IMG/VR virus record: IMGVR_UViG_648276647_000008
Length of the DNA stretch: 35,321 nucleotides
Direction: 5' to 3' (one strand)
Origin: a virus
Lineage: Duplodnaviria; Heunggongvirae; Uroviricota; Caudoviricetes
The notes beneath the pieces were generated by a model, which saw nothing but the letters and a program-made list of their open reading frames with translations, did not search any database and was not told the origin of the DNA. Below, in pieces: positions 29,491 to 33,346 of the stretch (the stretch's first letter is position 1; each line of letters starts with the position of its first letter). A program made the translations under genes and the position numbers.

Positions 29491-29507
29491 ATTGCTCTAA
29501 TAAATAT
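29491..29507 (+). promoter_or_regulatory. C1-operator-like 17-mer (ATTGCTCTAATAAATAT) upstream of the uhr-hrdC-dmt operon
   Basis: 16/17 match to the recalled consensus; a weaker copy (TTTGCTCTAAGTTTT) lies ~60 nt upstream. Confidence 0.55.
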
Positions 29508-29578
29508 TGTTTTTTATATCGTGTTTTCGGTACCATTCAGCCATCGCCTTTCAATGGGCATTAGTTAGGAGTCGTCAG

Positions 29579-29863
29579 ATGCAGATGGAGCTAATAAGCC
29601 GCAAGGAGTTCGATAGTCGGGTAACTAGCGGTGAACTCGACAACTTGCAGGCTATCAAGGTGAAAGAAGGCTTTTGCCTCATTGGGAATCAGAGCGGAAC
29701 AAATCGCGTTTTTATGCTTCGCCGTACGGATCTGAAGCCATTTGTCTGGAAGAACGAAATTGGTCCCAGCTCATACGCTCAAACGAGGGGGTGCCACAAC
29801 CTGGCCTTTTTCTACAAAGACGAGCTTTCTGTGGTTGATATTCAAGGGTTACAACATGTTTAA
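29579..29863 (+). CDS. Small protein upstream of the rdgC homolog (P1 uhr position)
   Basis: ATG at 29579 with AGGAG RBS at 7 nt; the track ORF starts further upstream without an RBS. 94 aa. Confidence 0.45.
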
Positions 29864-30761
29864 GCACTGGAAAAACATTACTATTTATAAACTTTCTCGT
29901 GAGGCGGATCTGACCGACTTAGAAGATAAAAAGAAAATGATCCTTTTCACGCCATGCGGTAGTCAGGATATGGCCAAGTTCGGTTTTGTATCGCCATTTG
30001 GTGATAATTCCGAAGTTATCGCTATGCATGGAAATGGTTTTATCCTTGTTGAAGCAAAGCGCGAAACAAAAATTCTTCCCCCGCCGGTTATCCAGCGAGC
30101 TATTCAAGAAAAAATTGAAAAACTTGAGCAAGAACAAGCGCGTAAACTGAAGAAAACAGAGAAGGACTCCCTGAAAGACGAAGTTCTACATTCTCTTCTG
30201 CCACGGGCTTTTTCAAAGTTTTCTGTTATCCAGGCGATCTACGACGGTTCAACTAAACGTATCTATATCAATGCCAGCGCGCGGCAGGCAGAGGATATGC
30301 TCGCGCTTATGCGTAAGTCTCTGGGGTCTCTTCCTGTTGTTCCCCTGAGTGTTGAAAATCCCATTGAATTAACGCTGACCGACTGGGTACGTGATGGTAG
30401 TGCTCCACAGGGATTTCAAATGGGGGATGCGGCAGAACTTAAGGCAGTGCTTGAGGATGGCGGTATTGCCCGAGTGAAAAAGCAGGATTTGGGAAGCGAT
30501 GAAATTTCCACACACTTGGAAGCAGGCAAGCTCGTCACTAAGTTGGCACTCGACTGGCAGAACCGCATTAAATTTACACTGGACCATAACTTCAGCCTTA
30601 CAAGCGTCAAATTTGCGGATGAATTGCTTGAGCAGAACTCTGATATTGATAGTGAAGATGTTGCGCAGCGACTGGACGCAGATTTCTTCCTGTTGACCAG
30701 TGAAATTTCGTGCCTGGTTGATGCTCTGGTAAATGCCCTTGGTGGAGAGGCTAAGCAGTGA
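29856..30761 (+). CDS. hrdC: Recombination-associated protein RdgC homolog
   Basis: ~301-aa product from the ATG at 29856. Near-colinear with E. coli RdgC as recalled ([11 protein letters not shown]..., [49 protein letters not shown]..., LGGEA). Confidence 0.8.
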
Positions 30762-33346
30762 AAGAGCTGTGCTATGGATCTGTTTGCAGTGGAATTGAAG
30801 CCGCGAGTATTGCCTGGGAACCGTTGGGTATGCGTCCGGCGTGGTTTGCTGAAATCGAGCCTTTTCCATCTGCCGTTCTTGCGCACCGCTGGCCCCATGT
30901 CGCCAACCTTGGCGACATGACAAAACTTGCCAAAAAAGTCCTGGCTGGGGAAATCGAATCCCCTGATGTGCTCGTCGGGGGAACACCTTGTCAGGCATTC
31001 AGTATCGCTGGATTACGTGGTGGGCTTGATGATGAGCGTGGCGCGCTAACTTTAAAGTATGTGGAGCTTGCAAATGCAATTGACGACAAACGGGCTGAGT
31101 CATTTCTCAAACCAGCCGTTATCGTCTGGGAAAATGTCCCAGGAGTCTTGTCATCGGCAGATAACGCCTTCGGATGTTTCCTTGCCGGATTGGCTGGAGA
31201 AGATGCGCCATTTGAACCAGGTGATCGACCTGAATCAGGAAAAAGTAACGCGTTCTGGCGGTGGGATGGTAAAACCGGTTGCCATGCTCCAAAGTGGCCG
31301 CAGTGTGGTTGTATTTATGGACCGCAGCGAAAGGTGGCCTGGAGAATCCTTGATGCCCAATACTTCGGAGTGGCACAACGACGCCGACGCGTGTTTGTTG
31401 TCGCAAGTGCTCGAACAGACCTCGATCCCGCAACGGTACTTTTTGAGTTCGAAGGCGTGCGCCGGGATATTGCGCCGAGCAGAGGCGAGGGGAAGGAAGT
31501 TGCCGGAAATGTTGGAAATGGCATTAAAAGCGGGAGCCATTGGGATAACCCTGTAAATCCGCACCCGACACTTAACCAGTCACACAATACTGGCGGGATC
31601 GGCGCAAGTAACCAGGAGATTTTTGCGCAGCGCGGAAGTGGGCTTGTTGGTGCTTATCGAATGGTTGCATTTGGCGAATATGCTGATGATGAGACTGCTT
31701 CTACTGTCAAGGCCAGAGATTTTAAAGATGCAACCGATTTAGCAGTTTTCAGTAGTACTGGTGCTGGTATTTGGCGTGAAGGTGCAGGCACTCTTCGTGC
31801 CAGAGCACAAGAAAGTCACGAACATCTGGCAGTGATGGCTATTCATGGAACACAAGATCCTGATGTTAATTGTGAATTGGCACATACTATTGGTCGTAAC
31901 CATGGTCAAGAAAATGCAGTCGTAGCTTTTTCCTGCAAAGATTATGGACAAGATGTTTCTATTGAATGTTCTCCGACTTTACGATCTGGTAATACTGTTA
32001 ATAGCAATCCAAATGCAGGATGCCCACCAGCTGTTGCGTATTCGCTACAACATGCACAAATTGGGCGAAAAGATGATGCTGGACCGCAGGGTAAAGGGTG
32101 GCAAAAAGAGATAAGTTTCACTCTTGATTCCCGCGCTACAGCTGACGCCGTTGCGTTATCTTTTGGGGGGCAGAAAAGTATTGAAAAAGGCGAATTAGGT
32201 GATAATGGTTACTTACCTCATATGATGAGTGTTCGCCGTCTTACCCCTGTCGAATGTGAAAGGCTGCAAGGTTTTCCTGATGGGCATACGTTGATCCCGA
32301 CGGAAAAGCGTAAAAAAGTTAATTCAGATGAACTGGCATATCTTCGCAATCACTATCCAGATTTAAGCGAAGAAGAGGCCGCGATGCTTGCAGCTGACGG
32401 ACCGCGTTACAAAGCGATCGGCAATAGTATGGCAATACCAGTAATGCGCTGGATTGGCGATCGGATTACTAAGGCCGTATGTCGGCAGAAAGAAGGAAGT
32501 GAAACAAAAGAGCGAAAAGTTAAACCAGCGGCAGAATTCGAACGGTCCATATTCAAATGGGCCGGTGGAAAATTTGGTGTTCTGGAACAAATCTTTCGCT
32601 ATTTGCCAGAAGGGAAGCGCCTGATTGAACCTTTCGTCGGTGGCGGAGCTGTCTTCATGAATGCCGGATACCAGGAAAATCTGCTAAATGATGTGAATGC
32701 TGACCTGATTAACTTTTACAAGACTCTGCAACGCGAGGAGCATTCACTTATCACTCTGGCACATCGTTTTTTCCTGGACTACAACACCCAGGAGGGATAC
32801 TTGGCAGTACGGAATGCGTTTAACAAACAAGTCTATGATGATTTACATCGCGCAGCGGCGTTTTTGTTCCTGAACCGACATTGTTTTAACGGATTGACGC
32901 GCTACAACCAGGCCGGTGAGTTCAATGTCGGTTATGGGAAGTATAAAACTCCGTATTTCCCATTACAGGAGATGGAAGCCTTCCTCGGTGCGGAAGGGCG
33001 GTCTGAGTTTGTATGCGGTGATTTTGCAGCAGTGATTGAAGCTGCCGGAGAAGGAGATGTCATCTTTTGCGATCCGCCGTATGAACCGCTCCCCAATACA
33101 GAGGGGTTCACGAACTATTCCGGTCATGACTTTAAGTTTGAAGAGCAAAAACGCCTGGTGTCTCTGTTGACGGATGCTCATCGCCGAGGTGCAAAGGTAC
33201 TCATTACTAACAGTGGCGCGCCAAACGTCAGAGAACTTTATCAGGACAGAGGCTTCAGAGTGGAACCTCTCTTTGCCAGACGTTCTGTGTCTTGTAAGGG
33301 AGACACTCGTGGTGTTGCTCATGACGTTATGGCTATATTGCTCTAA
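30758..33346 (+). CDS. dmt: Bifunctional DNA methyltransferase: N-terminal C5-cytosine MTase fused to C-terminal Dam-like N6-adenine MTase
   Basis: 862-aa ORF, GTG start overlapping the hrdC stop. C5-MTase motifs ([34 protein letters not shown]) then Dam motifs (FKWAGGK, DPPY). No adjacent restriction endonuclease gene. Confidence 0.85.

Follow-up and report, generated by a model that had tools for sequence, protein, structure and literature searches.

A stretch of phage DNA in which a repressor operator precedes a homolog of RdgC and a single protein that joins a cytosine- to an adenine-methylating domain raises two questions: what this group of genes is, and what the cytosine half of the methyltransferase is doing there. 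In the window analyzed here, the whole 35,321-nt stretch of IMG/VR virus record IMGVR_UViG_648276647_000008, these genes lie at positions 29491-33346 (Table 1).

An operon shared with phages P1 and P7

The region is the uhr-hrdC-dmt operon of P1 and P7, which is already known and annotated in GenBank AF234172 and AF503408, and its observation here is therefore not a discovery. Operator, promoter, genes and overlaps are as annotated in both phages, and outside a central cassette of ~750 bp (31480-32233) the DNA is 95-98% identical to P1, P7 and 16 other P1-like phage records. The comparison with P1 itself (AF234172; Odmt/Op68) shows 96-97% DNA identity outside the cassette and extends to the position of the promoter, all three genes in the order uhr, hrdC, dmt, both overlaps (8 nt between uhr and hrdC, 4 nt between hrdC and dmt) and the flanks, where the neighbors upfC, upfB and repA match, with upfC upstream and the Oban operator and tRNA-Asn/Thr downstream. 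The complete dmt gene is 100% identical to WP_000660967.1 of the E. coli plasmid pM121-2 (94.5 kb). Taken together, we put at about nine in ten the probability that this region is the early uhr-hrdC-dmt operon of an E. coli P1-type phage-plasmid and that it works through the mechanism proposed for it here.

Table 1. Features of the uhr-hrdC-dmt region, in window coordinates; module boundaries are given as Dmt residues
Feature	Position	Strand	Basis
C1 repressor operator Odmt (formerly Op68), ATTGCTCTAATAAATAT	29491..29507	+	One mismatch to 17-bp consensus; placed as protein_bind in P1 and P7
Sigma-70 promoter Pdmt: TTGTTT, 18-nt spacer, TACCAT	29507..29536	+	Position carried over from P1 annotation
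uhr, 94 aa, first gene of operon	29579..29863	+	ORF; P1 and P7 annotation; phrog_2213 E 7.9e-64
hrdC, 301 aa, RdgC family	29856..30761	+	PF04381 E 8.5e-98
dmt, 862 aa, C5-cytosine and Dam-type N6-adenine methyltransferase fusion	30758..33346	+	GTG start
Motif IV Pro-Cys-Gln, catalytic Cys78	30986..30994	+	Allele alignment
C5 variable cassette, aa 237-492, between motifs VIII and IX	31466..32233	+	Sharp identity loss vs P1, P7
Cassette modules (aa): A ~246-298; S1 299-332; S2 333-362; B1 363-390; B2 391-428; C 429-492
C5 motifs IX to X (GNSMA)	32234..32434	+	Motif IX aligned to M.HhaI; conserved in 74/74 alleles
Dam (D12-class) domain	32558..33259	+	PF02086 E 2e-56; FVGGG 32633-32647; DPPY 33071-33082
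Divalent C1 operator Oban a/b	33337..33364	.	Consensus with 0 and 2 mismatches; P1 annotation

The initial annotation had described a repressor-gated operon in which an RdgC-like protein is coupled, through a GTGA overlap, to an 862-aa fusion of C5 and Dam methyltransferases. Each of these elements was recovered: a near-consensus C1 operator sits at the promoter, the TGA of hrdC and the GTG of dmt share 30758-30761, HrdC matches both PF04381 and the E. coli RdgC structure 2OWL over its full length, and the third open reading frame matches both methyltransferase families with both motif sets present. The gene uhr, with the operator on one side and hrdC on the other, had been overlooked.

A consensus scan located five C1 operator sites in the window, where chance alone would give 0.19. 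An alternative promoter (TTGAGA/TATTGT at 29482-29510) also came from a consensus scan, and both promoter choices abut or overlap Odmt. At the other end, Oban a/b overlaps the dmt stop codon and is part of the next (ban) operon, marking the end of the dmt unit; the downstream "dicF-like region" gave no Rfam match to DicF, even at E < 1. In a lysogen, C1 bound to Odmt at the promoter would keep the operon off, and in the absence of C1, during infection or after induction, a single transcript would be made from which three proteins are translated in overlapping frames. Both hrdC and dmt are induced during lytic growth (bioRxiv 10.64898/2025.12.28.696737). The clustering of uhr, hrdC and dmt most likely reflects products that are needed simultaneously rather than products that form a complex. 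The first of them has no Pfam match and a pN/pS of 0.08. In a CRISPRi screen of P1 in a dam+ host, all three genes scored as non-essential (PMC10695390), and therefore none of the roles proposed here is indispensable under laboratory conditions.

The two catalytic domains of Dmt

The GTG start of dmt is preceded by GGAGAGG 7 nt upstream, and its product matches DNA_methylase (PF00145, E 6.6e-36, in three stretches) and MethyltransfD12 (PF02086, aa 601-834), which suggests one polypeptide with two independently acting catalytic domains. In NCBI, the protein carries no name beyond "Dam family". The Dam domain aligns over its full length with E. coli Dam (2G1P, 4GBE; E 5e-59), with FxGxG and DPPY in the same order, but unlike that enzyme it is a C-terminal fusion domain, encoded by a phage and controlled by a repressor. 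Its DNA is 96-99% identical to the Dam domains of P1 and P7, and its pN/pS is 0.30. Given this near-identity to the P1 domain, whose activity is published, it is probably specific for GATC. Cleavage of P1 at pac requires Dam methylation, according to Sternberg & Coulby 1990 as cited in PMC12707154, and the suggestion of the initial annotation that methylation could mark DNA for packaging fits this requirement. By methylating GATC, the Dam domain would supply enough adenine methylation on fast-replicating phage DNA for pac to be cut and the DNA packaged, a role demonstrated in P1.

For the cytosine half, the label "Dcm" given at first did not hold: this domain is no Dcm orthologue but a C5 methylase of the phage type, in which the variable region is long and cassette-like. 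Motifs I, IV (PCQ), VI (ENV), VIII, IX and X are all present and in order, and 73-74 of 74 natural alleles retain all six. The C5 domain is intact, and the pN/pS of 0.13-0.21 in its core, below that of the Dam domain, shows purifying selection. An AlphaFold2 model of aa 1-592, built from a 98-sequence alignment, places the catalytic core at pLDDT > 90. In a sequence search of the PDB, only the conserved motifs aligned, to M.HhaI and M.HaeIII, which is silent on target specificity.

The strongest rival explanation is that the C5 half is an inactive relic, with only the Dam half working and the variable middle reduced to a drifting linker. The literature searched yielded no experiment on 5-methylcytosine made by Dmt, the NCBI name refers to the Dam half only, laboratory P1 carries G74W, three residues before the catalytic cysteine (the residue is G here), and motif I reads CSGIE, which is non-canonical with respect to FxGxG. 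On this last point, the prophage C5 enzyme M.BatI is active with a CxGxxG motif I (PMC8936443), and CSGIE in Dmt is therefore less worrying. The retention of the motifs across alleles and the lower pN/pS of the C5 core compared to the Dam half run against a relic.

An intein found in other alleles bears on the same point. About a quarter of the 74 sampled alleles carry an insert of 341 aa with Hint and LAGLIDADG domains between P77 and C78, so placed that the catalytic cysteine of the methylase is also the +1 splice residue of the intein, and the intein-bearing alleles retain the splicing residues at this cysteine, which again argues against loss of function in the C5 half. In the allele studied here, the junction between 30988 and 30989 is uninterrupted (GGTPCQAFS), the blastn alignment to the 1013-aa type breaks at 30989-30991, and dmt of the window has no Hint or LAGLIDADG match. 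Nothing on an intein in Dmt was found in the literature searched.

A swappable cassette between motifs VIII and IX

The only unusual part of the operon in this genome is the enlarged, swappable middle segment of Dmt. Identity is lost at 31480-32229 relative to P1 and at 31499-32233 relative to P7, with flanks that are 95-98% identical. P1 Dmt has 754 aa compared to 862 aa here, the central ~750 bp of the gene being replaced, and the two cassettes have in common only module S1-S2, at 74% nucleotide identity. The same operon also contains the 672-aa Dam of P7 and, in P1-like plasmids, the 1013-aa intein-bearing alleles, with conserved N- and C-terminal parts of 95.5-98.7% DNA identity; the P7 type has one short recognition segment (...GGAEIKTDNSAPTLTCNHEAPIV...) where the allele here has six modules, and many P7-type alleles contain the 341-aa intein at Cys78 that is missing here. 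In total, Dmt occurs in size types of 672, 754, 807 and 862 aa, the first three of which were each also seen with an intein. Only a minority of the complete E. coli genomes with a dmt gene, ~7%, have the cassette of the window, and the literature searched contained nothing on variation of the Dmt cassette.

Each of the six modules has a conserved T-L-type center (T-V in S1, T-I in B1), a shared feature that is visible only in per-module conservation profiles. In pairwise local alignment, S1 and S2 form an internal repeat (z 4.6), and the other pairs of the six modules showed no significant likeness. At least 38 module combinations, permuted orders included, occur among 194 related methylases, and fusion to a Dam domain is rare among relatives of the C5 variable region (~6 of 150). 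The lack of a confident AlphaFold2 fold across aa 234-490 (pLDDT < 50) would fit a drifting linker, but the same modules are conserved in hundreds of stand-alone C5 methylases. Considering also the motifs, the selection on the core and the intein, we regard an inactive C5 half as unlikely. Instead, the most likely reading is that the C5 domain methylates cytosines, with the cassette determining the sites, and that this would protect phage DNA against host type II restriction. Dual methylation by Dmt could confer broad anti-restriction, as the initial annotation had proposed.

A more specific and more tentative proposal is that the cytosine half may be multispecific, with each of the six T-L-centered modules of this allele, or pairs of them, acting as separate target-recognizing units, and with the set of targets reprogrammed by exchange of cassettes among P1-type phage-plasmids, whose operons are otherwise 95-98% identical, and stand-alone prophage methylases, such that each lineage would have its own anti-restriction spectrum. 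We consider this possible, but less likely than not. Bacillus phages have multispecific C5 methyltransferases (SPR, phi3T, rho11s, H2, SPbeta; cited in PMC8936443 and PMC12707154). These carry tandem target-recognizing domains in each enzyme. As in Dmt, a single C5 core is enlarged between motifs VIII and IX by a region made of short T-L-type units that vary in number, combination and order, and these enzymes are likewise phage-borne, without an endonuclease and silent in the lysogen. In contrast to them, Dmt is fused to Dam, and its multispecificity is a proposal. The variable region matched 47 phage records, none of them from a Bacillus phage, and no similarity of the modules to any Bacillus phage record was detectable. 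If the proposal is true, Dmt would represent, on the Gram-negative side, a counterpart of the multispecific enzymes of Bacillus phages, unrelated to them in module sequence and fused to Dam.

HrdC, orphan status and host range

RdgC is a ring dimer that binds double-stranded DNA and inhibits RecA. HrdC aligns with the E. coli RdgC structure 2OWL along its length (E 2.9e-113, 381 bits, residues 5-300), is equal to it in length and has a pN/pS of 0.06; in contrast to E. coli RdgC, it is encoded on a phage-plasmid, expressed only with C1 off and non-essential in the CRISPRi screen. Judging by its similarity to RdgC, HrdC most likely acts in the same manner: it would bind duplex DNA and restrain RecA on phage DNA that is replicating or in concatemers.

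The coupling of an RdgC homolog to a methylase, which the initial annotation had pointed out, is not general. In eight of eight non-P1 rdgC phages, sampled by hand, the rdgC operon contains no methylase, and rdgC stands beside recombination or replication genes instead. When viral contigs were scanned with an alignment of RdgC, only P1-like loci came back; these were then used for the dmt allele census, and hrdC is next to dmt in each of the 80 P1-like loci examined. Judging by the eight other phages, the linkage of rdgC to a methylase is specific to the P1 lineage and is no conserved functional pairing. A functional pair, in which HrdC loads or targets the methylase or shields unmethylated DNA, would account for the 4-nt GTGA overlap and for this constant adjacency, but stop/start overlaps are common in phage operons, and uhr and hrdC overlap likewise. 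HrdC is also 98-100% conserved while the dmt cassette is freely swapped, and there is therefore no sign of co-variation. With the eight methylase-free operons added, we judge such a pairing quite improbable.

No endonuclease domain was found in the 20 large open reading frames of the window, in agreement with the absence of a cognate endonuclease claimed earlier, and the complete pM121-2, which carries the identical dmt, had no annotated restriction enzyme and no res/mod; in the absence of a partner endonuclease, Dmt is therefore an orphan methylase. That Dmt is instead half of a conventional restriction-modification system with its endonuclease elsewhere is scarcely credible and was rejected: some P1-type elements do carry the res/mod genes of type III EcoP1I at another place in the genome, but EcoP1I has its own Mod subunit, no endonuclease was found in the window or is annotated on pM121-2, and an operon kept off in the lysogen could not provide the maintenance methylation that a resident endonuclease demands.

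As found, the operon repeats textbook P1 biology and is therefore nothing new by itself; what value remains is in the middle of Dmt. Methylome surveys based on PacBio sequencing have poor coverage of 5mC enzymes, and the Dmt allele series is a natural swap experiment through which recognition modules could be mapped to target sequences. P1-type plasmids are present in ~9% of complete E. coli genomes (492/5,426), often with resistance genes aboard. If the cassette sets the cytosine sites that Dmt methylates, it would help to decide which restricting hosts P1-type elements, and the DNA that they transduce, can enter.

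The uhr-hrdC-dmt operon

In a megablast search against phage genomes, 18 records matched, all of them P1-type (P1, P7, RCS47, JL22, SJ46 and others); identity was 96-97% across 74-82% of the query. In GenBank, P1 (AF234172) and P7 (AF503408) are annotated with the same features, including operator Odmt (formerly Op68) and promoter Pdmt, with the Oban operators, a dicF-like region, tRNA-Asn and tRNA-Thr downstream. Other genes in the window are P1-like as well (an SLT-domain tail protein, KilA/Ant antirepressors, ParB, ParA and RepA), and the full dmt gene is 100% identical to the copy on E. 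coli plasmid pM121-2 (NZ_CP083587.1). On these sequence comparisons, the region is the known P1 early operon. The initial annotation had described a repressor-gated operon joining an RdgC homologue to a fused methyltransferase; its coordinates and structural claims were correct, and its interpretation was broadly right, although the finding as given was already known and, of the genes, uhr had been overlooked. The genes overlap by 8 nt (uhr/hrdC) and 4 nt (hrdC/dmt, GTGA), and a C1 consensus scan yielded five operator-like sites in the window versus 0.19 expected.

Features of the operon and its surroundings (window positions)
Feature	Position	Strand	Details
C1-operator-like site	12742-12758		2 mismatches; immI / antirepressor region
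C1-operator-like site	14794-14810		1 mismatch; immI / antirepressor region
UpfC	29125-29409	-	divergent from operon; PAAR-motif match under Pfam threshold (26 vs 27 bits)
C1-repressor operator	29491-29507	+	ATTGCTCTAATAAATAT, 17 bp; consensus with one mismatch
Promoter	29507-29536	+	TTGTTT/TACCAT per P1 annotation; abuts operator
Alternative promoter choice	29482-29510		consensus scan
uhr	29579-29863	+	ORF, 94 aa
hrdC	29856-30761	+	ORF, 301 aa
dmt	30758-33346	+	ORF, 862 aa; GTG start, GGAGAGG 7 nt upstream
Dmt residue 74 (Gly)	30977-30979		
Empty intein site in dmt	30988/30989		
Low-pLDDT stretch of Dmt	31457-32227		aa 234-490, 257 aa
Identity lost vs P1	31480-32229		save 167 nt at 74%
Identity lost vs P7	31499-32233		
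Oban	33337-33364		divalent operator of next operon; dmt stop codon inside
Terminator-like hairpin	33527-33556		strong; GCCCATCTTCGGGTGGGC then T run; 185 nt past dmt
tRNA-Ser	34597-34683		long-arm, anticodon tga (ARAGORN); downstream of tRNA-Asn and tRNA-Thr
ORF	35037-35321		starts MSEEVQVAVGIDVSRDTLD...; towards window end

Several features around the operon were also recorded. On pM121-2, a GIY-YIG nuclease gene is inserted between parA and repA (L003:14218-15027, L003 being the plasmid record); it is absent from the window (25561-26117), which therefore comes from a P1-like element other than the best dmt match. The hairpin past dmt falls within the region called 'dicF-like' in the P1 annotation, where no Rfam match to DicF was found even at E below 1. 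The tRNA-Ser is not among the tRNAs annotated here in P1 or P7, and its only Rfam match is sub-threshold and tRNA-Sec-like. In the ORF towards the window end, a weak Pfam match (E 0.0019) points to the N-terminal part of an IS110-family transposase; the ORF is probably an insertion sequence, with no P1 counterpart at that position.

Linkage of hrdC and the methylase

HrdC is a full-length RdgC (PF04381, E 8.5e-98; E. coli RdgC structure 2OWL, E 2.9e-113). The uhr ORF is a genuine gene, strongly constrained (pN/pS 0.08); a Pfam search found no family for its product, whose PHROGs / RefSeq label, 'nucleoside triphosphate pyrophosphohydrolase', was without support in any search run. Lytic growth induces hrdC and dmt (bioRxiv 10.64898/2025.12.28.696737), and all three genes were non-essential in a CRISPRi screen in a standard host (PMC10695390).

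RdgC homologues were detected by tblastn in 444 phage records, and eight rdgC phages that are not P1-like, from E. coli, Klebsiella, Vibrio (four), Pseudomonas and Iodobacter, were inspected. Every one of them has rdgC in a neighbourhood of early replication or recombination genes (SSB, RecE/Bet, exonucleases, replication proteins); none has a methylase in the rdgC operon, and two have one about 3 kb away in a separate transcription unit. In addition, few proteins related to the C5 variable region carry a Dam fusion (about 6 of 150 representatives), and HrdC keeps 98-100% identity across 80 P1-like loci whose dmt cassettes differ. The linkage thus reflects P1 gene order and shared timing and is not evidence for a functional pair. 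The translational coupling of hrdC to dmt proposed initially retains its GTGA overlap, but the pairing itself does not recur in the eight rdgC operons inspected outside P1-like phages.

Domains and constraint of Dmt, and an intein in related alleles

Residues 601-834 of Dmt form a D12-class Dam domain (Pfam E 2e-56; motifs FVGGG and DPPY) that matches E. coli Dam across the full length of Dam (E 5e-59). Residues 1-580 are a C5 methylase by their motifs, CSGIE (I), PCQ (IV), ENV (VI), QRRRR (VIII), RRLTPVEC (IX) and GNSMA (X), of which IV, VI, VIII and IX align to M.HhaI; the AlphaFold2 pLDDT of the C5 core is above 90. The claim that this methylase is an orphan stands, as the refuting condition set initially, a linked endonuclease outside the window, did not turn up: none of 20 large window ORFs contains a restriction-enzyme nuclease domain, and no restriction endonuclease is annotated on pM121-2, the complete 94.5-kb plasmid with identical dmt, where P1 res/mod are absent and the nuclease annotations comprise Ref, a GIY-YIG protein, a VRR-NUC protein and two TnpB proteins.

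According to Sternberg & Coulby 1990, as cited in PMC12707154, P1 packaging needs GATC methylation at pac, and the phage methylase is therefore essential in dam- hosts. The searchable literature yielded no account of Dmt methylating cytosine. Each C5 and Dam motif is retained in 73-74 of 74 full-length natural alleles, and pN/pS is 0.14 for the C5 N-terminus, 0.13 for the C5 core, 0.21 for motifs IX-X, 0.30 for the Dam domain and 0.06 for HrdC. Judged by these values and by motif retention, the C5 domain is constrained at least as much as the Dam domain, the one with proven function. An active prophage C5 enzyme with a CxGxxG motif I is documented (PMC8936443), so the non-canonical motif I of Dmt is not disqualifying. 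Residue 74, three residues ahead of the catalytic Cys, is Gly in the window, in P7 and in 71 of 74 natural alleles but Trp in laboratory P1 Dmt (L001:4078-4080, P1 record); the substitution might impair the C5 domain of laboratory P1 and could explain the lack of reported cytosine methylation.

The 960-, 1013-, 1095- and 1148-aa Dmt alleles, found among the P1-like viral loci L008-L087 (L008, for example; proteins P0005, P0008 and P0059), carry a 341-aa class-1 intein (Hint+LAGLIDADG) that starts with Cys1 (CFTAGH...), contains a TNDHPF block and two LAGLIDADG motifs, and ends ...VVHN. It sits between P77 and C78, just before the motif IV Cys (GGTP/C...VVHN/CQAFS), which makes the catalytic Cys of PCQ its +1 splice residue. 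The intein occurs in 19 of 74 sampled P1-like Dmt alleles, with three different cassette types; no description of a Dmt intein was found in the searchable literature.

The modular C5 cassette

When the window's Dmt is aligned with those of P1 (754 aa) and P7 (672 aa), the three are near-identical except between motifs VIII and IX, aa 237-492 here. The breaks in the DNA are sharp, and the flanks are 95-98% identical to P1/P7. A length census of 80 P1-like viral contigs gave 34 alleles of 754 aa (P1 type), 16 of 672 aa (P7 type), nine of 1013 aa (P7 type plus intein), eight of 1095 aa (P1 type plus intein), four of 862 aa (window type) and one each of 807, 1148 and 960 aa, the last with an internal deletion within its intein; the remaining loci had shorter ORFs (565, 61 and 58 aa) or, in three cases, no dmt ORF found. 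The 5' part of dmt is present in 492 of 5,426 complete E. coli genomes and the 862-type cassette in 35, nearly all on 90-112 kb plasmids. No sequenced phage in the collection searched has this cassette, the best match being SJ46 at 62.5% amino-acid identity.

Comparison across alleles and relatives divided the variable region into six modules (A, S1, S2, B1, B2 and C). When the full library was searched with the region by HMMER, 995 proteins matched with E values of 0.001 or lower, mostly over sub-stretches; the usual relative is a C5 methylase of about 400-460 aa that stands alone in a phage or prophage of Vibrio, Aeromonas, Xenorhabdus, Citrobacter or Enterobacter. These enzymes often have A, S1 and B1, less often B2, and seldom S2 or C. 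A plus S1 together may be one ordinary recognition domain. Per-module conservation revealed a centre of the same kind in all six modules and in the single P7-type segment, including ASTxKARDyKDATDL, GTLRAReQeSHE, AhtLGRNxGqEN, sPTlRAg, fTLdsr and PTLTCNHEAP. S1 and S2 are significantly similar (z 4.6; score reached by 2 of 500 shuffles), and pairwise comparison found no significant similarity among the remaining module pairs.

In a sample of 194 relatives that have both flanking motifs, chosen by similarity to the query, at least 38 module combinations were found, including permuted orders (C+A, S1+A, B2+B1, P7+B2+A), and the motif VIII-IX distance ranged from 102 to 558 aa. Gly, Asn, Ser, His and Thr abound in the variable region, whose AlphaFold2 pLDDT is below 50 throughout despite about 90 homologues covering modules A and S1; the region may fold only on DNA. 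Dmt-type modules can be added, dropped and reordered, as would be expected of independent target-recognising domains such as those of the multispecific Bacillus phage enzymes, although the Bacillus phage records show no similarity to the Dmt variable region. The shuffling of modules among relatives is suggestive of independent target-recognising domains rather than one fixed fold. The C5 cassette may specify a single target or several, and its specificity may be exchangeable.
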